IMG/VR virus record: IMGVR_UViG_3300013121_000046 | Strand: one strand, 5' to 3' | DNA length: 64,000 nucleotides | From: a virus | Taxonomy: Duplodnaviria; Caudoviricetes | In this document: positions 2,138 to 53,324 of the stretch, in pieces | Position numbering within the stretch: the first letter of the stretch is position 1 | How the letters are laid out: every line of letters starts with the position of its first letter | Made by a program: the position numbers and the translations under genes | Notes under the pieces: generated by a model | Databases searched by the model: none | The model's input: the letters and a program-made list of their open reading frames with translations, nothing else | What the model was told of the DNA's origin: nothing

Positions 2138-3829
2138 CTAACCTCCGGAATTTCTCCAAATTATATCAGAAGGCTCTCGTCGATTCTCCCCAACCTGATA
2201 CGGGTGGGCCTTATCCACCTTATACCGGCGATGTACGGAAGTTCCCTGCGAAGGAAATATCCAGTTTTGATTTCCACCTAAATCGGTACAGTTATCAAAG
2301 GCGAGAATTGAATTTCCCCCACTAGCATCACTGTCTTGAACGTTGACCCAGGCGACTGCTGACGTTCCCTCAACAATTAGCTCAAGGCCAGCACCAACCC
2401 ATTGAATAGTCTCACCAGAATTTCCCTGCGCCATAAATTCAGATGCTATAGTTAATGGGTTTCGATCAAGTCCAGTAGCCAAAAAGTCAAACTCTGAACT
2501 CTGTGTAACAGTTACTCCGGGTGCAACTGTCAAGTAGCCTATATTTCCACCCAGCAAGGTAACATCTGTTTGCAAAGAAACATTGGAAACAATATCTTCC
2601 GTAGCACTATAAAACTGGTTCGCAGCAATTCCTGGGTCATCTACATCCACAATTGTAACCATAGTACTTGGATTAGTCACAATAGAGTACGTCGTAGGAC
2701 TAAACCCATACCCCAGAACAAAATTAGAACTAGTTATGGCAGCCCCAGAGATATCTAATGTTACTGAGGGAGTATTCTCTGATGAAATTGCTAGGAAGGC
2801 TCTTGTGACTAAGCTTATCCCAGAAAAATCTAGCTCTCCCTTCCAATGATTTATCTGAAAATAATCAATCGTATACTCCCCATCCGCCCAACTCAGCACA
2901 TGTGGATCACTGCTGAATGCGTCGAAAACACTAACTACACCAGGATATACCCCGGGAGGGATAACAGTATCAATTACATACAAACCACCTGAGATAAGTA
3001 AATCCCCAAGATTAAATATCGAGGATTCTCCTCGGGTCATCGTACAACCCTGAGTCAAATACAACCCTGCACCAGAAAGAATATCCGGGTCTCTATCTTC
3101 CGGATCCGCTAGAGTCCCATCTAGTACAAAACTTGTCATTACCGAAAAAATTAAGTCCTGCCCAGAGTCTGCCCAATCCAAGCTAGGAGGGAGAAGGTAC
3201 AGAGTTGCCCCTTCAGCTATATACAGAGTCTGGGCACTGGCTAACCCAGCCTTACATGTGTACGAACCGAAGACATTCAAAGCATAAGGACCCGAACCAT
3301 CATTATCGGCATAGAGATACTTATCTATACCGTAGAGATTATAGTTTGCTGTAGAGGTTAGCTCACAATCATTAGTATCAATCGTAACATCGCCATAAAA
3401 ATTAAGCGTAGCATTCCCAGTACGAAGAGACACTGACCCGGAACTTCCACTAACCACCGGATCATATAAGAGTAGATTTCCTTGCACCGTAAGAACTGAA
3501 TCACCTAATTCAATTCTTACATCTTGCTGATCCTCTGCTGAGTCCACCCAATGGATATCTTCCGCCACATCAACAGAATACCCTAACGTAGTCAATACTA
3601 CATCTGTACCATGAACAAAAAGTATCTCATCTACAGAAATATCTGCTGTTAAAGAACATGTACCATTATCAGCCATTCGATACTCAAAGATTGCAACATC
3701 CCCTTCCTGAGGATACCTAGAGGCTGGCCCAGAACCCCCTGAAGATTCAGCCCAATTGGTAGCGTCCTGCCAAACACCACCGTTTACCGCCCAATAAAAA
3801 TTGGCCATTAGTTCCACACCCCCCTGCAC
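2138..3829 (-). CDS. Acidic beta-helix-like surface/virion protein
   Basis: N-term YWAVNGGVWQDATNWAESSGG...P..GDVAIF and C-term VNVQDSDASGG...DLGGNQNWIF; beta-rich. Confidence 0.6.
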   Translation of the reverse strand: MQGGVELMANFYWAVNGGVWQDATNWAESSGGSGPASRYPQEGDVAIFEYRMADNGTCSLTADISVDEILFVHGTDVVLTTLGYSVDVAEDIHWVDSAEDQQDVRIELGDSVLTVQGNLLLYDPVVSGSSGSVSLRTGNATLNFYGDVTIDTNDCELTSTANYNLYGIDKYLYADNDGSGPYALNVFGSYTCKAGLASAQTLYIAEGATLYLLPPSLDWADSGQDLIFSVMTSFVLDGTLADPEDRDPDILSGAGLYLTQGCTMTRGESSIFNLGDLLISGGLYVIDTVIPPGVYPGVVSVFDAFSSDPHVLSWADGEYTIDYFQINHWKGELDFSGISLVTRAFLAISSENTPSVTLDISGAAITSSNFVLGYGFSPTTYSIVTNPSTMVTIVDVDDPGIAANQFYSATEDIVSNVSLQTDVTLLGGNIGYLTVAPGVTVTQSSEFDFLATGLDRNPLTIASEFMAQGNSGETIQWVGAGLELIVEGTSAVAWVNVQDSDASGGNSILAFDNCTDLGGNQNWIFPSQGTSVHRRYKVDKAHPYQVGENRREPSDIIWRNSGG

Positions 3830-3846
3830 ACAAAATTAGTAAAATC

Positions 3847-5928
3847 CTACACAGGGCTAAACGCTAAGGTACTAGGAATATTGGCCACCGGTACAATAAT
3901 GTCGCTAAATCCTGGTATAGACAGCACAGCCGTGATTCGATTTACCCTATTAAAAGGTATCCCTGTACCTGATAGCTTATCCAGAGCATAGCTAATAACT
4001 GGCACAGTTGTTTTCCCAGCAGAGTCTACGGTGAAAGGGTAAGTTTCCAGGTCCTGGAAAGCCCCTGGCCCAGCCGAAAACCGGATCGTTCCAGATTTGC
4101 CTGCTACATTAGTAGAGCAGGTTAGAGTTTTACTGGTACCTATTTTAATACTCCTTGGAGAATCCCTCAGATTTTCAGCCGTTATGGTACCCAGATCAAA
4201 GGTAACTCCGGAGGTAGAAATCGTATCCAGAATAGTAATGACCTCCTTCACTCCCCAGTAACCGGTATACACCGAAACCTTACGGTAGCTATCGTCAGAA
4301 AACATAATCTTCGATGCTACCACAGTCACAATTTCCCGCCACCGATCTCGAACAATCTGAGAGTCCGGGAAGTTATTATTTATCCAAGTTACCGCTGCCC
4401 CGGACCACTGGGCAAACGCTGGCTGTGCCCCCAACCAATCACACTGATTCCCGACTAACGGGGTAAGTTGATAACAGCAGCTATCCCCCCCAGAGATACT
4501 AATAATCACGTTATTAGAGATAAACTTATTGCTATTAATCAGGTCTGTAGCCCCAATGTTGTTACCGGGCTTACCCTGATCCTCAAGAGTGATGGCATTA
4601 GCCCGCTGATCGTGTGTAGTATCTCCCGAAAGAATACTATATGAAGTATTCTCAGTAATAGTGTTCTGAAATTCGTAGTTCCCAAAGTATAACCCCGAAG
4701 CAGAACACCTATCACCACCCCCTAGGGCGAGGATAGTATTCCCTTTCACCAAGTTGTTTTTACACTCATACCGCATTCGGATCCCGGCAGCGTTCAACCC
4801 CCAACCATACTCCTCATTAGGAGAATCCCAAGCGAGGATCACATTCGATAATACCTTATTACCCTCCCCGGCATTCAACATAATCCCTCTACCATTCAGT
4901 GGGACTATCAAATTGTTCTGGAAGGTACTGCCATTTGACCTATACTCACCGATTCCATAACCATTTGTCGCATACGAATTATGCGAGATAAAGTTATACT
5001 CCACGCGACAGTTCTCTACCACATTTACTGCTAGATTCCCACCAATCAAAATATTATGATGGACATATGAGCCTCCACCAACATTTAATGATCCTGGTTG
5101 TGTGTGTCGATCTGCGGTTGCTGTACACAAATTATTGACAAACGAATTACTTACCGTAGAAGAACCCCAACGGAAAAATACACCACTCGAATCCGTACCA
5201 GAAACCTCCAACCTACAATTGTCTATAACAGCCTCATTACCACGGTAACCATAGATCGCATGGCATTTGTAGGGTTGGGCTCCCTTCGGGCCAGCATACA
5301 CAATCGCACCATTGATAATCTTAGCCCGAAAAGCCTCTGAAGAATCGGATATAGCATCTCGGTCTGAATCTGCCCAGTTCAAGTATAGGTGGATTCCATG
5401 TGCCTCACTAGTACTATTCACACCGTAGAAAATGGCATAACCATTCAGATCAATAGTCACATCCGGTCCCGCAATATAAATACCATCTCTGTCAAAACTC
5501 AAATTCTCTTGTAAAACATACTTTCCAGACCGGACAACAATGGGCTCTGATTTTCTCGCCCCGGGCCCTGGTAAGGGTGGTGGGGGTGAAATCGGGCTGG
5601 GGGGAGGCGAGACCGGTACGGGGGGCGGAGGAGGTGGAGATATCGGGGGAGGTGGAGATATCGGAGGAGGTGGAGATATCGGGGGAGGTGGAGATATCGG
5701 GGGAGGTGGAATCTCTAGCACAGCCACACGCTCTGCTAAACTTTTCAACTCTAACTCTAACTTAGCTACCTGCGAACTGAGGACAGTAAACAAATCCTTA
5801 GTCGCTCGATCATTCACATCAACCTGACTCAAGAGACCCGATACAGATCCTTGAAGAGCCTGTAAAGATTCCCCTAAGCTCTTAGTCTGCTTCTCAAGAC
5901 TAGTTAATCGTTGAGCTACCGTAGCCAT
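3847..5928 (-). CDS. Tailspike/depolymerase-like right-handed beta-helix protein with N-terminal coiled coil and Pro-rich linker
   Basis: SGKYVLQENL...GIYIAGPDVTIDLNGY cap, repeated N-x-I rungs, (PPPPIS)n. Confidence 0.75.
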   Translation of the reverse strand: MATVAQRLTSLEKQTKSLGESLQALQGSVSGLLSQVDVNDRATKDLFTVLSSQVAKLELELKSLAERVAVLEIPPPPISPPPPISPPPPISPPPPISPPPPPPVPVSPPPSPISPPPPLPGPGARKSEPIVVRSGKYVLQENLSFDRDGIYIAGPDVTIDLNGYAIFYGVNSTSEAHGIHLYLNWADSDRDAISDSSEAFRAKIINGAIVYAGPKGAQPYKCHAIYGYRGNEAVIDNCRLEVSGTDSSGVFFRWGSSTVSNSFVNNLCTATADRHTQPGSLNVGGGSYVHHNILIGGNLAVNVVENCRVEYNFISHNSYATNGYGIGEYRSNGSTFQNNLIVPLNGRGIMLNAGEGNKVLSNVILAWDSPNEEYGWGLNAAGIRMRYECKNNLVKGNTILALGGGDRCSASGLYFGNYEFQNTITENTSYSILSGDTTHDQRANAITLEDQGKPGNNIGATDLINSNKFISNNVIISISGGDSCCYQLTPLVGNQCDWLGAQPAFAQWSGAAVTWINNNFPDSQIVRDRWREIVTVVASKIMFSDDSYRKVSVYTGYWGVKEVITILDTISTSGVTFDLGTITAENLRDSPRSIKIGTSKTLTCSTNVAGKSGTIRFSAGPGAFQDLETYPFTVDSAGKTTVPVISYALDKLSGTGIPFNRVNRITAVLSIPGFSDIIVPVANIPSTLAFSPV
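5630..5710. repeat. 18-bp coding tandem repeat (PPPPIS x4)
   Basis: GGAGGTGGAGATATCGG(G/A) units. Confidence 0.9.
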
Positions 5929-9869: not shown

Positions 9870-10625
9870 TTAAAGTAAAATCCCAAAGTTAACTCCAGTA
9901 TCCTCCAAAGGGGGCTTCCGATACCGATTATCACAAGCTTGCTGAAACTCACACTGAGAACATACCCCGGAAGCGGGGGTAGCCTCCCTATTGCCCAAAC
10001 TCCAAGCTGCTAGTACCTGGGGTATTGTACCCCAAAATCCAGAAGCCATAGCTTTTTCGTGGGTGATAAATCGAACATCCCCCGTCCGCACCCAGAAATA
10101 CCCACCCCGACAGGGGGTGGAATTAACCAAGCCTAACAAATACTGTAACTGGGTATTACCCCCAGGGCGAGGCCTTAATGACGTACGACAAAGCCATACG
10201 CTCACTCCGTCGTCCTCCTCCAGAACAAAATCGGCTGTTCCCGACAACCAGCAGCCCTCAACCTCTCGTTGATAGGTTGTAACCCCTCGATACTTCCGCT
10301 CAAGCAAAAACGATTGGAGATTCTTAATTCCAACTGCTACTTCTCCGACTAAAATAGAACTACTTAAAGAACAAATAGCTCCCGTGTAGGCCTTAGCTAA
10401 CACCAAACTCTGGTCAACCAAAACCTCCAATTCATTTGTCTTTACTGGAGTACATAAATCCTGATCTCGGGACTTCAACCACTCTTTCAGCAAAAAACGA
10501 TAAGCTAGATACTTCGCATCTGCTCCCCTAGAAGGTCGTACCTGTATTTTATTCTCAAACCTAAATTGATATTTTTTAGGGCAAGTTAAGTACTCTTCTA
10601 ATTGATCCCAATCTATTGAGGGCAT
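9870..10625 (-). CDS. Cas4/AddB-like PD-(D/E)XK Fe-S protein, motif III degenerate
   Basis: YLTCP; GTAD; QLQY; CSQCEFQQAC; expected DyKT reads LCRT. Confidence 0.75.
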   Translation of the reverse strand: MPSIDWDQLEEYLTCPKKYQFRFENKIQVRPSRGADAKYLAYRFLLKEWLKSRDQDLCTPVKTNELEVLVDQSLVLAKAYTGAICSLSSSILVGEVAVGIKNLQSFLLERKYRGVTTYQREVEGCWLSGTADFVLEEDDGVSVWLCRTSLRPRPGGNTQLQYLLGLVNSTPCRGGYFWVRTGDVRFITHEKAMASGFWGTIPQVLAAWSLGNREATPASGVCSQCEFQQACDNRYRKPPLEDTGVNFGILL

Positions 10626-11713
10626 TCAACCAACTCCCGCTCTATGCTAGGAAGCTCCGCCTCTGCCCTAAGTAAAAGCTTCTGTGTCATATCTAACACT
10701 TTTTGCGGTGTTGTTCCCTGCGACCTAAGATTACTAAGAATATCTTCCACGGAAACTACCTCAGAACTCATTTTTTTAAGTTCTGATACAAACCGTTCCT
10801 CACGCACTGTTGCCTCTTTTACTCTTCTATGTTCGGCCAAGTCAAAAACTTCCTCATACGGTTGATGAGGAAGTTTCACATTCAAAACCTCATGTACCCC
10901 GGATGAATGAAAGCAGCATAAAGACACTTTTGGTTCACGATTTATATCTACAGAGCCTAGAGTCCCTCTAATCATCGCTCCGGGCTCGGAAATATAGTGC
11001 GGACCATCCTCATCGTGAACACAAACAATCCCACCATCCCTATGGGGGTGCCCAGATACCACAATATCAACCCCAGTCCCCTTAACAACATTATGCCCAA
11101 CTACAGGGTCCGAACCCTGATATTCCCCCTCCTGAGGACCCCAAAAACAGTGAGTTAGGGCCAAAGCCTTGGTCGCCCCCGTTTCCTTTTTTAACCTACT
11201 TATCTCTTTAGTAACAGATAATACCTTAAACCAGTTTCCAGGCCCTTCCGAAGTATACTCCTTCCCTAATAATAAAACCTTCGGAGAATCCTTTGTTGGC
11301 CCTTGAATCACGGCATACTCAGGCCAATGGATAGTTTGGATAGTACCACTAGCCACTAAAATACCAAAGGGATGCGTCTCTAAATCTGAGATTCTATTAT
11401 ACTCCATATCGTGATTACCGGCGATAGCAAAAACAGGACAAGGAAATTCCCTTAACTTTTGGATCAAGAGTCTAGTCAAAGAGTGTGATACTGATTTACC
11501 CCTTGGATGATGGAACAAATCTCCCGCAATCAAAAGCCCTGCCACCGGAGTCTTTTCTGTAGCATCGGCTGGCCAACGAACACCCTCAGTTAACTTTCTA
11601 ACCGCTTCGATCTTAGCTAACTGAGTCTCTAAGAAGTCTCGATCTTTTCTGGAAGCGGGTTTACGATCCGAGAAATGTGGATCACAGATTGCTAATAAGT
11701 AGGTGCCAGACAT
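10613..11713 (-). CDS. Mre11/SbcD-like metallophosphoesterase nuclease
   Basis: DPH, AGDLF, GNHD, GHPH, EPGAMIR. Confidence 0.85.
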   Translation of the reverse strand: MSGTYLLAICDPHFSDRKPASRKDRDFLETQLAKIEAVRKLTEGVRWPADATEKTPVAGLLIAGDLFHHPRGKSVSHSLTRLLIQKLREFPCPVFAIAGNHDMEYNRISDLETHPFGILVASGTIQTIHWPEYAVIQGPTKDSPKVLLLGKEYTSEGPGNWFKVLSVTKEISRLKKETGATKALALTHCFWGPQEGEYQGSDPVVGHNVVKGTGVDIVVSGHPHRDGGIVCVHDEDGPHYISEPGAMIRGTLGSVDINREPKVSLCCFHSSGVHEVLNVKLPHQPYEEVFDLAEHRRVKEATVREERFVSELKKMSSEVVSVEDILSNLRSQGTTPQKVLDMTQKLLLRAEAELPSIERELVECPQ

Positions 11714-11724
11714 AAGAAATTCCC

Positions 11725-11979
11725 TTAAAGGGTCACACCCAATTCCGCCCGACGATCTAGGGAGGATATCATAAATCTTCTCTGATCTTTGCTCGTAACA
11801 GTCATTGCGGATAGTCCAATAGTCGTTAATACCTCGAAAGTCTTGCCCATATCTGGGTGTGCCATACCATCTTTAATTGCTTCTAACTTAGCCCAGACAG
11901 TCGAAGGTAAAGTCACAAACCTAGTATCCAGTTCCGCACTATCTGCTGATTCAGTCATTATTTTTTCCTTGTTTTCCAC
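11725..11979 (-). CDS. Small hypothetical protein (possible ribbon-helix-helix)
   Basis: RFVTLPSTVWAKLEAIK pattern. Confidence 0.45.
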   Translation of the reverse strand: MENKEKIMTESADSAELDTRFVTLPSTVWAKLEAIKDGMAHPDMGKTFEVLTTIGLSAMTVTSKDQRRFMISSLDRRAELGVTL

Positions 11980-13090
11980 AGACAGGGCAATACCCCAAAG
12001 TCTGGAGAGTTGCTCTAGTTTCTCTTTCCGTCTTTGCTAGATCTACTCGGGCTTCATCAGATTCCCGAAATAATTTTTCTTTTTCTTTCAGGATGCCCCT
12101 TCGCCTATCTCGTAACCGAGTGAGACAACTCAACCGGTTGGTGCTCAATTGGATAGTCGGTATTTCACACTTGGGCGAAGATAGCCCAGAAACCTTTCCC
12201 AGTCTATTAGAGATACCCTTTACCTTGAAGTACCGGCCTCCCACACCCAAGGGTGAAGGTACTGTCCATGTACTTACCTGAGCTTGTACTCTAAGACCTA
12301 CTTGCACCCTTAGGTATCTTTTTAGTATACTGACTCGCATCCAAGATCGGTCAAAATCTACCTTAGCCGGAACCCTCTGGGTCTTCACAGCCATAAGAAT
12401 TGTCTGACTACGCAGAGCCTCTCGCATTCTACCTTTGAGCACACGTAATTTTTCTAACCGATTTCTACTGACTTTAATCCTATCCCCCAATTCCTGGAGG
12501 GTCTTTAACCTCTCAGACAGACTGCCAGAAAAAGTCTGAAGAGCAGATAACCTAACTGTCACTGAATCCAGTTGTTCATTCAATACCCTTAACTCAACTT
12601 TTCTATCTCGCAAATCTTTCTGGCCTACTTTGACTGCGAGGGACACTTTCTGAGAAGCCTGTGTCGCAGCCAATAGCTCAGCCGTTACCGCAGGTGAATC
12701 CTCACCAAGAATGAACAAAGAGTCATGCTGCCTAGCAACTTGAGGATAGTACTTTTTACCTCCTACCGACAAACTTTGAATTCCCAAGGACTCAACTTCC
12801 CTTGGGATGGTCCTACCAATTTTTTCTATAGTTTTCCCATCCACATCATACTGCACCCCAGCCGAAGTTCTAGCCCACCGTACCTGTTTTCCCGGAACGG
12901 ATAGAACAACGTCAGCAAAAGACTCCCCCTTTTTAATACAGGAACTGCCCCCGGAATTTAATAGTGCAGATCGAATAGCTCTGAGAATTGCAGACTTACC
13001 TCGATTACTCTCCCCTGTAATCGCTGTGAATCCAGAAATATCTAATTCTGCGGATTCAATAGCCTGGTAATTTCTAATCTTAACTTTCAC
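11951..13090 (-). CDS. Rad50/SbcC N-terminal half (Walker A, Q-loop, coiled coil, zinc hook)
   Basis: IRNYQAI, GESNRGKS, RQHD, terminal CPVCG; no signature or Walker B. Confidence 0.8.
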   Translation of the reverse strand: MKVKIRNYQAIESAELDISGFTAITGESNRGKSAILRAIRSALLNSGGSSCIKKGESFADVVLSVPGKQVRWARTSAGVQYDVDGKTIEKIGRTIPREVESLGIQSLSVGGKKYYPQVARQHDSLFILGEDSPAVTAELLAATQASQKVSLAVKVGQKDLRDRKVELRVLNEQLDSVTVRLSALQTFSGSLSERLKTLQELGDRIKVSRNRLEKLRVLKGRMREALRSQTILMAVKTQRVPAKVDFDRSWMRVSILKRYLRVQVGLRVQAQVSTWTVPSPLGVGGRYFKVKGISNRLGKVSGLSSPKCEIPTIQLSTNRLSCLTRLRDRRRGILKEKEKLFRESDEARVDLAKTERETRATLQTLGYCPVCGKQGKNND

Positions 13091-13343
13091 TGGAAAGCTT
13101 CTCCGTAAATATACAACCTGCTTTTTTCATTGCAGTGTAAACCGAAAGAGCTACCGAAGTTCTATGTAACTCAACCTGCGTAACTATTCCTGACCATTCA
13201 TCCTGTGATACTGGGGGTAAACCACAAGAGGCTAATACTCGATCTATTACCCTCTTCGCCTCATCTCGATCCCCCGGGGTTTTAGCCACTACACCGTAGT
13301 GTAGAAGAATAATCTCTCTTCTTGTCAAGCTATTGAGAGTCAT
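13080..13343 (-). CDS. Hypothetical protein (likely start MTLNSL)
   Basis: Short ORF between DUF6065 gene and SbcC half. Confidence 0.5.
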   Translation of the reverse strand: MTLNSLTRREIILLHYGVVAKTPGDRDEAKRVIDRVLASCGLPPVSQDEWSGIVTQVELHRTSVALSVYTAMKKAGCIFTEKLSSES

Positions 13344-14217
13344 GTCCGGATTTTTCTTCTTTCGGAACACTAGAAACAAAGAAGGTCTTTTTTCTACCCC
13401 CTTCACCATAGATGGTTATCGGTCGATGCTTAGAGTCTGGGGCCTCATACTTTTGTTGCTTAACTGGACGAAGATCCTCAAAAGACCTAACATCCAACTT
13501 TGTTTGATGTTCAGCATAGACAGTATCATCCCCAACATGTTTACCCTGAAAGTAAGTTTTCTGCCAGGATTGCTGTGCCGCCTCACTACCTGGAATAGTC
13601 AAATCCGAATTGAACTTATCCCGAGACTTACTCCATGTCTTGTACTGCTTTGCTAAAACTGGATCGTCCTCCACCAACCTTAGTTCCGGTTTTAGAGATT
13701 CTGATAGACCTCGGGTCATCGGCACAATAACACACATAGGCTCCCCTGCCTCGAATATCACCTCTCCTGGTCGAGTGAACTTCCAGTTCATAGTAAAAGA
13801 ACTGGAAGCCCAGTCTGTTTCCACAACCCCTTCTAAGGCAGCTATACCATCCTTTGGAGAATTAGCCGGCCCCTTAACCCAAAGATTTACATTTTTGGGG
13901 GTCCGAAAAACATAACCAATGGAAAAGGTCAATACACCCCCACCGAAATGCGAAGTAGGTAGCTGAGATGCCTTATCCCAAAACCGTATCTTGATAGCCC
14001 CCTTATCCATCTTACCATTCCAATGGGCGGTGAAACTAGCCGGATTTAGTATCTCCCACCCTTCGAGGTTTGCTATATTCAACGGCAAACACCGATAGGG
14101 AACCCTCTCGTGAAATGCTTCCATCCAATATCGAGAAAGTTGGGCTGGACGAACCACCGGTGGTTCAGAGATCACCGCATAGGCAAATATTTTTTGCTCT
14201 CCGGAGGCATCAGACAT
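13330..14217 (-). CDS. DUF6065-family protein
   Basis: RYWM...YRCLPL.IAN..GWEIL, SHFGGGVLTF, GP.N.PKDGI..LEGVVETDW...FTMNWKFTRP. Confidence 0.75.
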   Translation of the reverse strand: MSDASGEQKIFAYAVISEPPVVRPAQLSRYWMEAFHERVPYRCLPLNIANLEGWEILNPASFTAHWNGKMDKGAIKIRFWDKASQLPTSHFGGGVLTFSIGYVFRTPKNVNLWVKGPANSPKDGIAALEGVVETDWASSSFTMNWKFTRPGEVIFEAGEPMCVIVPMTRGLSESLKPELRLVEDDPVLAKQYKTWSKSRDKFNSDLTIPGSEAAQQSWQKTYFQGKHVGDDTVYAEHQTKLDVRSFEDLRPVKQQKYEAPDSKHRPITIYGEGGRKKTFFVSSVPKEEKSGHDSQ

Positions 14218-15685
14218 TGAGTAGTTCCTTACTGGGGGCTTCTTCCTTAGACTTACTGACTTCCTCAGACTCCAATTTCTCCAATCGCTTAATCAATCTA
14301 GTTACCTCATCCACCAAGTACTTTTTATCCGCAACACTAACCCTTAATTCAAACTTCTCCAATTCTCTGACCCGATAGGTATCCTCTTCCCCATCGAAGG
14401 TGTACCCAGTGCCGGACTCTTCCTCGATCAAACCCAGAAGTAAACCCTGCTCATAGATCGAACTAGCCTGGCTCAACTGCGCCAAAGTTAGTCCCTTACC
14501 CAGCTTAAGCTCGAACTTTGTATCATTACTCATCATCCCAGTATCTATATCCAGAGTAACCACATTTAGCTGCTCCTTACCGATGGCTTCCGCCGAATCC
14601 CATTGTAGTACCTTCTTAAGGTACTCCTGGGCCTCTCGATCATCTCTCAAAGCGTCAATAAATTTCTTCTCCCCCTGAGATTTAAGCACCCGATGAGGCA
14701 TTTCTATCGAGTAGTAACCACCTCTTGCAGACTTCTGGATAAGAAACTTGCCCCCACCCAGGTCTTTAATTAGGGCTAACTCTACCAAAGTTCTCAGGGA
14801 ATCAATCCCTCGACCAAACTCAATGTAGAACAGCGCACTACGATAGGGCTCAGCACATTTGTTTTTCCAGGTTATAGCTCGTACCACACTAGCAAAAGGC
14901 CGAGACTCAATTTCCCCAGACATGGGGTTGGCAACCTCAGCAGCTAAGACTTTCTTTACCGCTAAACGAATTCGTAAAGAGCAATAGAAGGGTAGTGCTC
15001 TACCGCCAGGAGTAACATCCTTATCAGATCCGGGCAGGCCTGGGATTCCCTTATTATGATCGAACTTATTCATCGAGATATAGGCTCGAAGCTGATTCAA
15101 AAGTAAGAAAGTGGTATTATGATCTGCCGCATACTTCGACCACCGAGGCAACAGATCAGCAATTCCCCGAGCCTGTAGTCCTGGTTGTGGACTTGAATCT
15201 TCATCTCGTGACTCAAAGGCCTTCATCGGAGTCATGGCTGGAACAGAATCTACCACAATAATAGCCGGGCAAAGTTTCTTAGCGAACATCTCCCGAACAA
15301 CTTCGTCTCCCTGACCAATAGTATCCGGCCTAAAGACTAAAAAACGATTTTCAACTACGTACTTAGCCAACTGAAGAGTCTCTAAGTACTCTTTTGTGAT
15401 GGTTCTCTCATAATCCAAAATGACACAGAGAGAATCTGGGTTACGAGATAGCTCCTTTTCGCACAACTGTAAAGCAACGGTCGTCTTTCCAGACGACTCA
15501 TGCCCCGACAACTCCACAATCCGACCCCTAGGTATCCCCCCAACCCCGGTTATATAATCTAAGGGGGGACAATCCGTGGAAATCACCTCAACTTTTGTCG
15601 AGTTGATATCATGGAATATCTTCTGCTTGCCATAGAAGGAAATAAAGCTATCCAAGGCATTTCTATCAATCATTATTTTCCCCAA
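14210..15685 (-). CDS. recA: RecA recombinase with long C-terminal extension
   Basis: GGIPRGRIVELSGHESSGKTT, VVDSV, GLQAR, NQLR, TPGGRAL.FY, KNK. Confidence 0.92.
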   Translation of the reverse strand: MGKIMIDRNALDSFISFYGKQKIFHDINSTKVEVISTDCPPLDYITGVGGIPRGRIVELSGHESSGKTTVALQLCEKELSRNPDSLCVILDYERTITKEYLETLQLAKYVVENRFLVFRPDTIGQGDEVVREMFAKKLCPAIIVVDSVPAMTPMKAFESRDEDSSPQPGLQARGIADLLPRWSKYAADHNTTFLLLNQLRAYISMNKFDHNKGIPGLPGSDKDVTPGGRALPFYCSLRIRLAVKKVLAAEVANPMSGEIESRPFASVVRAITWKNKCAEPYRSALFYIEFGRGIDSLRTLVELALIKDLGGGKFLIQKSARGGYYSIEMPHRVLKSQGEKKFIDALRDDREAQEYLKKVLQWDSAEAIGKEQLNVVTLDIDTGMMSNDTKFELKLGKGLTLAQLSQASSIYEQGLLLGLIEEESGTGYTFDGEEDTYRVRELEKFELRVSVADKKYLVDEVTRLIKRLEKLESEEVSKSKEEAPSKELLNV

Positions 15686-16961
15686 GAATCGGCGTGACTA
15701 GTCCATTAAGAATAAAAGTTTCCCCCACTAGCCCAGACAAGACGGCATTGGGGGTACTATTTTTCTTTTTCTCTGTACCAATAACTCGATCAGTACTCAC
15801 CCCTGGAACACCCATATGATACAGAGTTTCCCAAGCTGCAATTGCATTCTTTGTTTTAGCCCAAGGTCGGATTTGTGCTGCCGCAGCACTTAAGTTCTCT
15901 GGAGAAATGTCCTCAGAATCAAAATCAACTCGGATTCCCAAAGACACTAGTAAATCTCTACCCTCTCGTAAGGGATTTACTAGTGTGGGGTGTGTAGGAA
16001 GTTCTTCCTTAACTGACCTTCCCCCCCAAAAGGGTGGGAGTTTAATACTTGAAAAGAATATCTTTAGCAGACTCTGATAATCTGCTTGCGACCTTAGGAA
16101 GAGTTTCCATCGAGGTTCCCCGAAAGTATTCAGGGTCGCATATCGACCCCACCGAACTCCAAAGTTCGCACAAACCAATTGGACCGTCTCACTAACTTCA
16201 CTATTTTCCAGTTCCAACTCAAAATCCCTAACCGTCCATTGACCATTGGCAAGCACTAATCCGGTAATCCAAGCTTTCTGAATTTCTTCTGTAGCCTCTC
16301 GAATGTACCGAGGAATTTTGTGGTTAGCCTCATGTACCAAAAACCTCATTTCAGAACGAATAACAGCTAGACCAGTGAACTTCATGTAGGCAGAGTTTGC
16401 AGCAAAAATAGATTGCTTTGTGGCGTCCAAAGCCCATTGGCGGACTCGGTTTCTCTGGATCGCGCTACTCGTAGGAAGGACGAGCTTATCACCCCGCAAT
16501 TCAGCCCCCACCAGAGCCCCGTAGAGGCTAGCCTCAGCCTCCGACACCTCGTCCCCCTCACCAAAGCACCGATGCCCCGCCTTGACTACCACGATCATAC
16601 CAGGGCGTAGGCTCTGGGCCTGGCACCAAGATCCATGCCCGGTCTTATTAAGGGTGAGTATCCGACTATCCGGAGTGGCCAAAATATTATGCCCACACTC
16701 CGTTCGCACCTGAGTCAGAAAACTATCGTTATAATGCAAACCTAAAGCCAGGGTCCGGGAATCCATACTCTGAATTGGTATTGCTGTAGGTCGCTTATCC
16801 GCAGTCAAAAATCGACCCAATTGGCCCTTAAGAATTTCTCCTTCAGAATTTCTAACCCAATAGGCCTCTGAAACTAGGTCTGACAATTTCAGTATTCCCC
16901 GATCAGGTGAAAACACATAGCTATCCAAGCTAAAGCCGGCTATTTTGAGTGTCGGACCCAC
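15666..16961 (-). CDS. Free-standing inactivated intein-like protein (Hint + LAGLIDADG); likely GTG start 16961 (track start 17045)
   Basis: Intein blocks in order: GFSLDSYVFSPDRGILKLSDL; VRTECGHNILATPDS; LYGALVGAE; IPRYI..AWITGLVLANG; DRV...TFILNGLVTP. Confidence 0.75.
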   Translation of the reverse strand: MGPTLKIAGFSLDSYVFSPDRGILKLSDLVSEAYWVRNSEGEILKGQLGRFLTADKRPTAIPIQSMDSRTLALGLHYNDSFLTQVRTECGHNILATPDSRILTLNKTGHGSWCQAQSLRPGMIVVVKAGHRCFGEGDEVSEAEASLYGALVGAELRGDKLVLPTSSAIQRNRVRQWALDATKQSIFAANSAYMKFTGLAVIRSEMRFLVHEANHKIPRYIREATEEIQKAWITGLVLANGQWTVRDFELELENSEVSETVQLVCANFGVRWGRYATLNTFGEPRWKLFLRSQADYQSLLKIFFSSIKLPPFWGGRSVKEELPTHPTLVNPLREGRDLLVSLGIRVDFDSEDISPENLSAAAAQIRPWAKTKNAIAAWETLYHMGVPGVSTDRVIGTEKKKNSTPNAVLSGLVGETFILNGLVTPILGENND

Positions 16962-16998
16962 CTGGACTCCCTTCCAAACTATGGGTGAAGGAAACTGA

Positions 16999-17277
16999 TT
17001 ACCACTCTGAAGCACGCTTAGGCTTCGGACAAACTTTTTTACCATTGGAGTCTACTCGATGCTGCTTCACCGGGAAACCACAAGTAGTGCAAACGTCTAA
17101 GGTTTCCTCGGAACTTGCCTTAACCGGCTCTATTACTTTCTTACGAAGCATTGTTCTGGACCCAGGAACCGGACATATTTTTCTACCTCGTACTGATTTA
17201 TGAAGCTTTCCGGGAAACCCACAGGACATACAGATATGCTGGTCAGCTTCATTCCCTGGGGCTGGTTTAGGAGGCAT
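16999..17277 (-). CDS. Tandem Zn-finger protein
   Basis: Two CxxCGFPxKxH-x(5-6)-GxKxCP units. Confidence 0.7.
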   Translation of the reverse strand: MPPKPAPGNEADQHICMSCGFPGKLHKSVRGRKICPVPGSRTMLRKKVIEPVKASSEETLDVCTTCGFPVKQHRVDSNGKKVCPKPKRASEW

Positions 17278-50255: not shown

Positions 50256-51512
50256 CTATCCAATTGCTACTCCGGGGATATCGAGAAGCTTAACCTGTTT
50301 TCTCAATCTCCCCGGTGAAACTTTTCGAGGCAACCTTTCCCTTTGTGGTTGATTCAGATACTCCAGGTAGAGGGGGATATTCAGTTGACCTGGAACTTCT
50401 GAGGATATGAGTACCGCTTTTTGCAACTTACCCCATTGTTCAGCAGTAAGTGGAGACCGAACAATCAAAAGAATTTCAGATACATCACTAGGTTGTTTCA
50501 CAACCTTAATTTTGTCCTCCGAAGTCACTGGTTCCGAACATACATCCGGAAAATATTCTTTTTTGAAGTCTTCTAGGCTAACTAACTCACCCCAGTTATC
50601 TCCAACTTCTATATCTGTCTCTATCGGTACATCCCAGTTTTTTTGGTTGTTGGGAAAGGTCATTAACTCAGAAAGCTTCTGACAATTATCTACGAACTTA
50701 TCATCCAAGTGAATCTCAAAAACCAATTCATCATGGACATTCAACAAAAGCTTAACTTGTACGTCGGGATTAGTTAAGAGCCATTCTTGTATCCGACACA
50801 TCGCAATTTTTAGGATATCAGCGCTGGTCCCCTGGATAGGAGAGTTGCTGGCTGAATTAGATAGATAACTCTCCCAACGATTCCGTTCTTTTTGTGTTTG
50901 TGCCTTCTGTATCTCTCGTATAATATGTCCGACATTCCGTACCCGACCATAGAAAGTTGTAACTCGGCCCTCGTTTTTAGCTCGCATGGTTTGAAGATCA
51001 AACCATCTGCGATAGGCCGGGAGATTTTCCCACCAGGTAGAATGGAGAGCGACTGCTTCTGGTAAAGTTAGGTCGCTTTGTCGGTATAGGGTACGAGCGG
51101 TACCCCCGTAAAGATTGCCGAAATTGGCTGCTTTGGCCGCATCTCGTTGTTCTTTGGTGGGCTTATCTGTCTTGTAGGCCACCTTTGCCATTTCGGAATG
51201 TAGGTCTCGCCCTTCTCTAAAAGCTGCTATCCAAACTTGTTCCTGTGATAACTGGGCGGCTACTCGAAGCTCGATGGCCTTATAGTCAATCGAAACTATC
51301 TTCCAGCCAGGTCGAGACCGAAAGGCTCGTCGAATATTAGTTCCAGGACCAATTTTTAGACTTGCTTCTTCCCAAGAACAAGCCTTTACCCACTTACATT
51401 TTTCACAGGAACTTCTAAAACAGTATGTAATGCCACCCTCTCGCCAAAATTGCCCTAATTCCATTACGGCCGGGACATAGCCGGGGGTACCTATTGGTGG
51501 TAATTCAGGCAC
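50256..51512 (-). CDS. DNA polymerase A, C-terminal subunit (palm/fingers)
   Basis: IRRAF, DYKAIELR, RDAAKAANFGNLYG, NSPIQGTSAD, VHDELVFE. Confidence 0.92.
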   Translation of the reverse strand: MPELPPIGTPGYVPAVMELGQFWREGGITYCFRSSCEKCKWVKACSWEEASLKIGPGTNIRRAFRSRPGWKIVSIDYKAIELRVAAQLSQEQVWIAAFREGRDLHSEMAKVAYKTDKPTKEQRDAAKAANFGNLYGGTARTLYRQSDLTLPEAVALHSTWWENLPAYRRWFDLQTMRAKNEGRVTTFYGRVRNVGHIIREIQKAQTQKERNRWESYLSNSASNSPIQGTSADILKIAMCRIQEWLLTNPDVQVKLLLNVHDELVFEIHLDDKFVDNCQKLSELMTFPNNQKNWDVPIETDIEVGDNWGELVSLEDFKKEYFPDVCSEPVTSEDKIKVVKQPSDVSEILLIVRSPLTAEQWGKLQKAVLISSEVPGQLNIPLYLEYLNQPQRERLPRKVSPGRLRKQVKLLDIPGVAIG

Positions 51513-52080
51513 GACGATAACTTCTCCAAATCTCTAAATCCATTTCTGCGGGAGATAAGTTACTGTTAGCGATATGGGATAAAAAAACACGCTCCAATTC
51601 TAGGTATCGTTTCCCCGTCGGGGTGTTCTTCGGAGCAGATATGCCCAGACTATTGATATACTTCAAAATGTGCGTATCCAACACCGCGAAATGCTGATTT
51701 TTTCTTGAGTGCAAAATAAATGCCCGAGAAGTCTTTGGCCCTATACCATAAATTGCCTCTAACTCAACAACTGAACAAGTCTGTAAGTCAATTCCTGAGT
51801 TAGATATATCTAAAAAGGTTTTTGCCTTTGCCCGAGAGCAACCCATACCTGCCCACTTTAATCGAACAGCAATCTCTTCATGAGAGAAGTCTTTTATCTG
51901 TAAAAAAGGGCTGTCCGCCTTAGGCAGATGCTCTAAAAATTCCTCCACTACTCTGGCGGCTAATTTTGCTGTTTTTCCAGCGGCACAAATCCAAAACAGT
52001 ATCGTCTTCTCTAATTCTGGAACACTTTGATTAAACTGAGTAATATTATCCGGATCAATCCTAGGCATACTTAACCTCAT
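51505..52080 (-). CDS. HhH-superfamily DNA glycosylase/AP lyase (OGG2-like)
   Basis: GIGPKT (Lys), VLDTHI (Asp), YLELE, DLEIW. Confidence 0.75.
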   Translation of the reverse strand: MRLSMPRIDPDNITQFNQSVPELEKTILFWICAAGKTAKLAARVVEEFLEHLPKADSPFLQIKDFSHEEIAVRLKWAGMGCSRAKAKTFLDISNSGIDLQTCSVVELEAIYGIGPKTSRAFILHSRKNQHFAVLDTHILKYINSLGISAPKNTPTGKRYLELERVFLSHIANSNLSPAEMDLEIWRSYRRA

Positions 52081-53324
52081 TCGTGATTCAATTCTGCTGG
52101 GGGTACCTTAATCTTTCTGCACTTTGCTAAACGGTATTTAGAGGCCGATGGAATAGATTGAACGTTCATCGCGGTATAGAATTCTCCTTTAGAACCACCA
52201 CCGGAGGAGAGTCGGCCTGTCGGGGCTCCCACAGAGGAGAACTTAAAGTGAGCATATGGATCGTCATCTGTAGTAGACTCTAATAATCTTCCGACGTAGG
52301 TAGATCTCTCTTTACACAGTTTTCTATATAACACAATCTTAGCCGCTATCGGACTAACCTCTGCCAATATCTCTAACTCAGCCTCACCTAAGTTAGGATT
52401 ACCTTTTTCTGTTTTAGAGAAGGCTATACCATTTTCAGTAAAATACTTAGCCAATTGCTTACTACTCAGCAAATTGAAAGGTCCCCCGGCTGCCTCATAC
52501 ACTTCCTTCTCCACCTGACAGATCAGACGCTCTAAGGTCTTATCCGCCTCACGAAGAATAGTCCTGTCCATCAATACACCAGATTCCTCCATGCTCAAAA
52601 GACTCTCGATAAGATTGTGCTCTACCTGACAAATCAAAGCCTGTTCTGCCTCAACTTTTTCTTCCGTAGCTCGATATACCTTGATAGTCATCACTGGGTC
52701 AGCCGCCGCATACAAAGTAGCCTGTTCAGGATCTGTATAAGAAAAGTCTATCTCACCCCGCATCTTTTTATCTCTAGCTGCTCCAGGTACCTCTCGAATA
52801 TCCAACATCTGTAACTCTGGATGAAACCACTGAATTGCTGATTTCAGGCCCACCTTTTCTACCTTCTCGTTGCTATTCCATAACCAAGCATAGACTAAAG
52901 CATCCCTCAGTATTGAGTATGAAGCCCGTCTATTCACTCCACACTGCCTTAAAAACCTACCCTCAAACTTATAGTTATACACCAACAAAATTCTAGGCGG
53001 AGCTATCACCTCCTGTATGATTTTCCAAACAATATCTGGATCAAGATTCTGCTCTGGCTTGACTTTGTGTCTTACTGGACAATAGACCCCTTCATCCGAA
53101 GAAAAAGCCAAGCAGTGCCCTACAACATCTTGCTCTTTTGGATCTAGATTTGTAGTCTCAATGTCCCATGAGACCAGATTTTGAGTTCTATTAGCCTCAA
53201 CATAGTCTCGTAACTCTTGTATGGAGCCTATCTGTCGAAGTCGAATTTGACTCATCCAAGGCTTCCAAAGAGGGCTATCCTGATATGCTATTCGAGTTTC
53301 CAAGGAGGCTGTATCTGTGGGCAT
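52077..53324 (-). CDS. DNA polymerase A, N-terminal subunit (3'-5' exonuclease + thumb)
   Basis: WDIETT, YNYKFE, YAAAD, FNLLSSKQL, KTEKG, TGRLSS, NVQSIP. Confidence 0.9.
   Translation of the reverse strand: MPTDTASLETRIAYQDSPLWKPWMSQIRLRQIGSIQELRDYVEANRTQNLVSWDIETTNLDPKEQDVVGHCLAFSSDEGVYCPVRHKVKPEQNLDPDIVWKIIQEVIAPPRILLVYNYKFEGRFLRQCGVNRRASYSILRDALVYAWLWNSNEKVEKVGLKSAIQWFHPELQMLDIREVPGAARDKKMRGEIDFSYTDPEQATLYAAADPVMTIKVYRATEEKVEAEQALICQVEHNLIESLLSMEESGVLMDRTILREADKTLERLICQVEKEVYEAAGGPFNLLSSKQLAKYFTENGIAFSKTEKGNPNLGEAELEILAEVSPIAAKIVLYRKLCKERSTYVGRLLESTTDDDPYAHFKFSSVGAPTGRLSSGGGSKGEFYTAMNVQSIPSASKYRLAKCRKIKVPPAELNHE

Follow-up and report, generated by a model that had tools for sequence, protein, structure and literature searches.

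What becomes of an intein once it has left the gene that hosted it? The fates usually given are spread, decay to a mini-intein and loss, and to our knowledge only in HO/WHO of yeast has the survival of an intein outside its host gene been well studied. The question is raised here by a locus in a 64,000-nucleotide stretch – the window – of IMG/VR virus record IMGVR_UViG_3300013121_000046 (Duplodnaviria; Caudoviricetes), a 236-kb contig of an uncultured large phage. The open reading frame (ORF) list, the sequence, homology to RecA-embedded inteins and a whole-intein fold identify a free-standing intein-derived gene at positions 15666..16961 of the minus strand, directly ahead of an uninterrupted recA/UvsX-like recombinase gene (14210..15673, minus strand). 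An earlier reading of the letters alone (the sequence-only reading) had drawn attention to this gene as an inactivated intein, kept intact and coupled to recA.

The window protein has the fold of an entire intein. An AlphaFold2 (AF2) model made with its relatives as alignment reached a predicted local distance difference test score (pLDDT) of 94.1 and a predicted template modelling score (pTM) of 0.92, and a model from the six free-standing sequences alone gave the same fold (pLDDT 87). The best Foldseek matches were whole inteins with a LAGLIDADG endonuclease – TliVMA (7qss, E 1e-18), then PI-PfuI and PI-SceI – and VIA-align matched model residues 9..425 to the TliVMA intein from residue 1 to its end (Z 27.2). 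Both programs place an endonuclease between the N- and C-terminal parts of a Hint fold, and two pseudo-symmetric LAGLIDADG subdomains are identified by profile matches and by the match of the inner domain to I-DmoI structures (E 2e-6, template modelling score 0.6 by target). The whole-intein architecture proposed by the sequence-only reading is thereby borne out, as is its expectation of structural matches to Hint and LAGLIDADG proteins. No extein is present: 8 residues precede and 6 follow the intein-equivalent span, and the downstream recA is uninterrupted. The leader had been estimated correctly at about 8 residues; the tail is 6 residues long rather than the 7 first given.

Four parts can be delimited on the minus strand. 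The Hint N-terminal part (residues 9-128, 16578..16937) was placed by alignment to 20 embedded inteins, and the LAGLIDADG endonuclease-type core (residues 136-305, 16047..16556) by its profile match to I-DmoI. A helical accessory region, seen in the AF2 model with helices at 325-340, 354-367 and 371-383, lies between the core and the Hint C-terminal part (residues 306-385, 15807..16046), and alignment and fold define the latter (residues 386-425, 15687..15806).

The reading frame extends beyond this gene. It is open over 459 codons in the ORF list (15666-17045, minus strand), and a start at ATG 17045 would give 459 aa; a start at GTG 16961, with GGGAG 5-6 nt upstream, gives a 431-aa product, in agreement with the Shine-Dalgarno-supported GTG and the uninterrupted frame of about 430 codons that had been read from the sequence. 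The public gene call at this locus, P0001 (15666-16598), begins at Met150 of the long frame, for a product of only 310 aa. This call omits most of the Hint N-terminal part and would hide the intein architecture from annotation.

We searched 1.84 billion representative sequences exhaustively with phmmer and recovered 34 relatives. Homology to RecA-embedded inteins (E 4e-53 to 1e-30, 30-36% identity) covered residues ~40-455 of the 459-aa ORF, almost the entire intein, and the matches carried Pfam RecA and Intein_splicing, which makes the window protein a full-length member of a phage RecA P-loop intein family. In matches of 860-980 aa, RecA is interrupted right behind the Walker-A lysine (GxxxxGK) by an insert of ~420 aa. 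These inserts begin with Cys, end in Ser-His-Asn and are followed by Ser-Thr-Leu-Ala; the embedded relatives, which make up most of the 34, are ordinary inteins. The sequence-only reading had missed that related phages carry such genuine inteins, members of one family with the window protein, in the P-loop of their recA. One embedded relative, P0015 (1342 aa), has a second intein besides the P-loop intein, with Pfam LAGLIDADG_3, at about residues 626-1024 of its recA product.

Other searches returned little. By word-index search we recovered nothing beyond the proteins of the window itself, P0024 and a few distant RecAs (31-35% identity); scans of IMG/VR and JGI queried with the intein, P0007 and recA gave no relatives, and the intein family was present in 0 of 35 IMG/VR recA loci compared by C-extein alignment. 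We found no close relative of the source phage among GenBank phages and no second copy of the intein-derived gene within the window. A search of the PDB with the single window sequence gave no significant match. In Pfam the window protein matched only Intein_splicing, at E 0.075, and neither PHROGs nor NCBIfam matched it.

The family separates clearly at the residues used for splicing. Conservation in the 20 embedded members is 100% at Cys1, at the block-B His, at the block-F Asp and at the terminal His-Asn. Aligned to these, the window protein has Gly9 (16935-16937) in place of Cys1, Ser99 in place of the His of the block-B TxxH motif (TPDS, 16665-16676), Val407 in place of the block-F Asp and Thr-Pro-Ile (residues 423-425, 15687-15695) in place of the terminal Ser-His-Asn, with Leu at the +1 position. 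The glycine at position 1 and the TPDS block B had been recognised from the sequence, as had the loss of the terminal His-Asn, though its replacement is Pro-Ile and not Thr-Pro. Because the catalytic residues are replaced and nothing is there to splice, splicing is excluded, and we regard the window protein as splicing-dead with practical certainty. We also ruled out a split-intein or trans-splicing arrangement, since recA is unbroken and no junction residues are left.

Five further relatives likewise lack exteins: P0002, P0006, P0007, P0013 and P0024, with 374-432 aa, leaders of 2-5 residues and tails of 0-6. Most splice residues are lost in all six free copies – P0013 retains Cys1 along with both the block-B and the penultimate His, and P0006 retains the block-F Asp – and the NCBIfam models intein_Nterm and intein_Cterm match the embedded but not the free members, the window protein included. 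Each free copy is followed on its strand by an uninterrupted recA, 0-1 gene away. The copy is 74 nt ahead of recA at P0002, where DUF6065 and AAA_23 genes then follow as in the window, and 10 nt ahead of it at both P0006 and P0024; one small ORF intervenes at P0007 and an epimerase gene at P0013. The synteny with recA, which the sequence-only reading had suggested checking in relatives, therefore holds at 6/6 loci. At one further point the assembly is doubtful: the recA fragment of L002 is readable only up to about position 3575, and the contig end (a JGI contig, 3576-3887) holds a second, inverted stretch of the intein-derived gene, most likely an assembly chimera.

In the window the two genes overlap. 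The overlap of the intein-gene stop with the recA start amounts to 8 nt (ATGATTGA) if recA begins at ATG 15673; the 20 nt given by the sequence-only reading applies if it begins at TTG 15685. The genes are very probably co-transcribed and translationally coupled. The recA product matches Pfam RecA at 2e-35 (model positions 7-262) and PHROG 97, which is UvsX-like. Its P-loop, GHESSGKT, is encoded at 15482-15505 (minus strand), and comparison of junctions with the embedded relatives puts the ancestral intein site after Lys63, between nucleotides 15485 and 15484.

We conclude, with little room for doubt, that the window gene descends from a recA P-loop (Walker-A) intein. In a maximum-likelihood tree of the intein parts, P0013 is nested in the embedded members (with P0009, support 99/97, then P0005, 98/98), and the window protein groups with P0002 (84/88). 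A single clade of all six free copies was rejected by the approximately unbiased (AU) test (p = 0.00077), and one clade of the five without P0013 was permitted (p = 0.23). The same picture comes from the recA tree, in which the window and L001, the P0006 locus, have sister recA genes (95) and the recA of P0013 groups with the P0003 and P0010 exteins (97). From the intein tree, the AU test and the recA tree it follows that there were at least two escapes from recA, of which one is old and the other more recent. Common to the window and L001 is the gene order zinc-ribbon / intein / recA, and this synteny and their sister recA genes indicate that the two free copies had a free-standing common ancestor.

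Two other possibilities were considered. Residues 9-37 of the long frame from ATG 17045 resembled RecA N-exteins by eye, as if an N-extein remnant persisted; a hidden Markov model of 15 RecA N-exteins scored ≤0 bits on all frames upstream of five free copies, and the remnant was rejected. Nothing supported a frameshift fusion with the zinc-ribbon ORF at GGTAAAAAAG near 17040, where the two frames are offset by +1 in the window; they are likewise different in L001.

The zinc-ribbon ORF itself (92 aa, 16999..17277, minus strand) lies directly upstream of the intein-derived gene and has two CxxC...C units. Its homologue at L001 (588-833, plus strand; BLASTP E 2e-15) occupies the equivalent place directly 5' of P0006, and such an ORF is found upstream in only 2 of the 6 free-copy loci, the window and L001. 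Its 3' end overlaps the long intein frame near the GGTAAAAAAG run. The resemblance to the zinc finger fused in yeast HO/WHO may be coincidence.

Has the gene been maintained since its escape, or has it merely lingered? One explanation is that it is a functionless relic of a rearranged intein-containing recA, its frame supplying a promoter, ribosome loading or coupling for recA. The overlap of its stop codon with the recA start would suit such a role, and so would the loss of every splicing catalytic residue. The free copies also sit on long terminal branches (0.93-2.58, against an embedded median of 0.82), about twice the embedded length. One copy, P0024, also lacks Glu154, an acid of the endonuclease core discussed below.

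Identity among the six free copies is only 28-35% (27-52% for the neighbouring recA genes), yet the change is not spread evenly over the protein. Identity between free and embedded members falls to 0.26 in the Hint N-terminal part, compared with 0.365 among embedded members, and to 0.22-0.32 in the Hint C-terminal part, compared with 0.43; in the endonuclease core the values are 0.33 and 0.34. In the free copies the Hint halves are relaxed and the LAGLIDADG domain is not. Core residues present in all six free copies are G148, R156, G197, R221, Q228, W242, E248, E250, N266, G268 and K286; W176 is found in 5/6 (Ile in P0024), and P309 and W312, just beyond residue 305, in 6/6. A relic kept for coupling requires only a translated frame and no conserved protein, and would not be expected to keep about a dozen polar and aromatic core residues in 6/6 (one in 5/6) free copies, a core as conserved as in embedded inteins or a fold confidently predicted from the free copies alone. 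Nor can coupling explain retention at L004 and L002, where a gene lies between the free copy and recA.

The nucleotide comparison of the window with L001 points the same way. Identity at codon positions 1, 2 and 3 is 0.47, 0.56 and 0.29 overall and 0.55, 0.64 and 0.32 in the core, and dN, with dS saturated, is 0.61 for the core and 0.99-1.18 for the Hint parts. Third positions are thus saturated and first and second positions conserved, which argues for selection and not decay, and since ~400 open codons and a conserved core persist across the distance between window and L001, a neutral relic is unlikely. We therefore consider purifying selection on the window gene very likely and the relic explanation improbable. 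The proposal that the gene is kept intact, made from one sequence, now has six copies behind it. Splicing cannot account for conservation of the core in the free state, so the LAGLIDADG domain appears to have a job of its own; a regulator, a RecA partner and a protector against homing endonucleases were the candidates of the sequence-only reading.

What that job might be depends on the catalytic positions. A profile of residues 136-305 matches I-DmoI residues 92-154 (E 5e-4). In block E (WITGLVLANGQW, 16236-16271, minus strand), Asn239 occupies the place of the catalytic E117 of I-DmoI and of the corresponding Asp of TliVMA, leaving the second LAGLIDADG helix without an acidic ligand, and Trp242 aligns to K120 of I-DmoI. 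In block C (LYGALVGAE, 16500-16526, minus strand) the canonical position is Ala153, with Glu154 one residue later. The sequence-only reading had taken the loss of these acids as part of the inactivation. They are indeed missing at the canonical positions, but both positions are non-acidic family-wide, in splicing-competent embedded members as well; the loss is therefore a family trait and was not caused by escape. Block E carries Lys/Arg in 21/26 family members and Glu154 is kept in 21/26. In the main clade the two were lost jointly (P0020 and P0024; Fisher p about 0.04, uncorrected for phylogeny), a sequence pattern that hints at a salt bridge between Glu154 and the basic block-E residue in place of the metal site. 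Describing the protein as fully inactivated was correct for splicing and went too far for the nuclease part, where the conserved Glu154 remains.

A loss of this kind has been studied in the PhoVMA intein, whose endonuclease is inactive after loss of the LAGLIDADG acids and in which grafting the acids back restored cleavage (PMC8966425). We favour a similar state for the window protein: because both canonical metal-binding acids are absent, a non-cleaving binder is the preferred candidate. Specifically, we propose that the gene encodes a putative retained sequence-specific DNA binder, made together with RecA and without canonical double-strand cutting, and give this reading a probability of roughly 45%. 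Having left the recA P-loop codons, the intein has kept its whole fold and stands just upstream of an intact recA. The function retained would be DNA recognition by the LAGLIDADG domain on its Hint scaffold, most likely as binding without a canonical double-strand cut. Sequence-specific DNA recognition, cleaving or not, is the established activity of the LAGLIDADG fold. The predicted target is most probably the sequence at which the ancestral intein homed, the P-loop codons of recA (15482-15505), or one that has since drifted from it; bound there, the protein could shield or regulate the locus, or direct recombination.

Several points weigh against this proposal. L002 and L003 are identical in DNA, L005 and L006 differ by one base outside the intein gene, and all remaining pairs are saturated at synonymous sites, which leaves no close pairs for a proper dN/dS; the codon comparison rested on a protein-made alignment, and the known free copies number only six. 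Part of the conservation, the window/L001 pair excepted, may reflect the earlier phase as an embedded intein. The predicted DNA-binding saddle has short beta strands in the AF2 model, so that strong binding is not assured. Selfish phage elements normally have a free-standing endonuclease gene beside its target gene, and adjacency to recA is therefore by itself no argument for domestication. Finally, Glu154 and Arg156 are kept in 5/6 free copies while their flanking residues vary, which would also fit a single surviving active site, as in a nickase.

The last two points belong to the main rival, a live alternative to domestication that the sequence-only reading had missed. Here the gene would be a selfish homing element of the WHO type: its product would nick or atypically cleave the recA P-loop of co-infecting phages without the element, and repair would copy both the gene and a resistant recA allele, as in intronless homing or marker exclusion. 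The geometry is that usual for free-standing homing endonuclease genes of phages such as mobE (PMC2790892), with the free copy 0-1 gene upstream of recA in 6/6 loci and, in the window, an ancestral cut site in downstream P-loop codons ~180 nt from the stop of the gene. It also matches yeast WHO, where extein-less intein-derived genes lie beside their target FBA1 (PMC7282813). P0013 has the look of a mobile insertion, set as a discrete unit into a 20-nt gap that separates two unrelated genes. Conservation of the endonuclease core, no weaker than in embedded members, also fits. Nicking endonucleases reportedly drive homing in phages (PMC3428280).

Such an element would nevertheless require nicking or atypical catalysis, because the canonical acid is missing from both LAGLIDADG helices, block E is Lys, Arg or Asn, and the position of I-DmoI K120 is Trp; the loss of these same acids is what inactivated PhoVMA. 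The intein and extein trees are broadly congruent, which suggests long vertical inheritance and not active spread. Pseudogene relics and WHO-style tandem clusters are absent, and the window, P0002 and L001 hold the gene at one place across deep divergence. On balance we consider a selfish element unlikely, though a serious contender, and a non-cleaving DNA binder the better account.

A third explanation places the function in RecA itself: the former insert might keep an affinity for the RecA ATPase core and modulate filament formation or ATPase activity as a protein partner. The operon and the likely stoichiometric co-translation with RecA would suit such a partner, and intein-extein contacts control RadA in the case of the P. 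horikoshii RadA intein (PMC4760082; PMC5790916). The pattern of conservation runs the other way, however: relaxation is greatest in the extein-contacting Hint halves, and the conserved endonuclease domain points away from the splice junction. No positive sign of binding was seen; a complex prediction for the RecA core (residues 1-340) with the free intein scored 0.00 and, run without controls, speaks neither for nor against. We regard a RecA partner as very improbable.

Among known systems, the closest kin of the window gene are the RecA Walker-A inteins of metagenomes (P0003, P0008, P0009, P0010 and others, of the form GxESSGK|C...SHN|STLA), which belong to the same family, have ~420 aa with Hint, LAGLIDADG and helical accessory parts, and share with the window gene the non-acidic LAGLIDADG helices and the recA neighbourhood. 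They lie in frame inside recA and carry the splice residues, whereas the window gene, with a start and a stop of its own, lacks exteins and every one of these residues. The published precedent is yeast HO/WHO (Coughlan et al. 2020, eLife 9:e55336, PMC7282813), extein-less LAGLIDADG intein derivatives without motif G, of which WHO stands beside its target FBA1 and homes without splicing. As in the HO/WHO definition, the window protein is an extein-less intein-like protein without motif G; it also adjoins recA, the gene that hosted its ancestor, and belongs to a divergent family. By analogy, the window gene can be described as a phage counterpart of HO/WHO. The likeness is one of architecture and description. 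HO/WHO are eukaryotic and nuclease-active, with a fused zinc finger, and occur in clusters with pseudogenes downstream of their target. The window gene is a single copy upstream of recA with both canonical acids missing, and its protein has no C-terminal zinc finger or other Cys-rich domain, the zinc-ribbon ORF being separate and in another frame.

Other systems share single features. Free-standing homing endonuclease genes, common in large phages (T4 mobE, PMC2790892; seg, PMC2988022), likewise stand alone between genes near their target, but they are GIY-YIG or HNH enzymes without intein ancestry, and the window gene has a complete Hint scaffold, for which the papers searched offered no parallel in a free-standing phage gene. 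The PhoVMA intein (Beyer et al. 2022, PMC8966425) has likewise kept its architecture with an acid-less LAGLIDADG domain, but unlike the window gene it is still embedded and splicing. In WhiA/DUF199 a dead LAGLIDADG domain is used as a transcription factor (Kaiser et al. 2009, as cited in PMC7282813). By description, WhiA uses the fold for DNA binding after acid loss, as proposed here for the window protein, but it has no Hint part, has an added helix-turn-helix and belongs to the conserved genes of bacteria. An endonuclease gene freed from an intein in phage-like DNA is also a feature of fractured genes with split inteins (Dassa et al. 2009, PMC2677866); there the host gene is split, the Hint halves remain on the exteins and splicing is in trans, whereas in the window recA is uninterrupted and both Hint halves left together with the endonuclease. 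In a full-text literature search we met no account of whole inteins without exteins, in phages or in prokaryotes.

The large ORFs of the window all lie on the minus strand; among their products are many replication and recombination proteins of phage type. After recA and one small ORF comes a DUF6065 protein (13330-14217, minus strand; Pfam E 2e-94), in the window as in the P0002 contig, forming a conserved recombination block. An AAA_23/SbcC-like ORF (11951-13090, minus strand, 379 aa) ends shortly after a CPVC motif; near it lies a calcineurin-like phosphoesterase (10613-11713, minus strand), and the pair looks SbcCD/Mre11-Rad50-like with a short ATPase gene. Farther away, a family-A DNA polymerase (50256-53324, minus strand) is divided over two ORFs, one with the exonuclease and the start of the polymerase domain (52077-53324) and one matching Pfam DNA_pol_A positions 138-381 (50256-51512, minus strand). 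Between them lies a 191-aa Ogg-HhH/HhH-GPD glycosylase-like ORF (51505-52080, minus strand).

These results point to a blind spot: Pfam, NCBIfam and PHROGs miss the free-standing proteins, which are consequently annotated as hypothetical. If the protein of the window still recognises the recA P-loop codons, it would be a natural specific binder or nickase, and it could also offer a way to study how co-infecting phages compete at the recombinase locus. If instead the selfish explanation is true, the gene would drive itself and its resistant recA allele into co-infecting phages without protein splicing, and the embedded and escaped forms would represent a transition in progress. One phage family holds both real recA P-loop inteins and extein-less, splicing-dead descendants beside recA, and it makes testable what the endonuclease domain of an intein does for its carrier once splicing is irrelevant.

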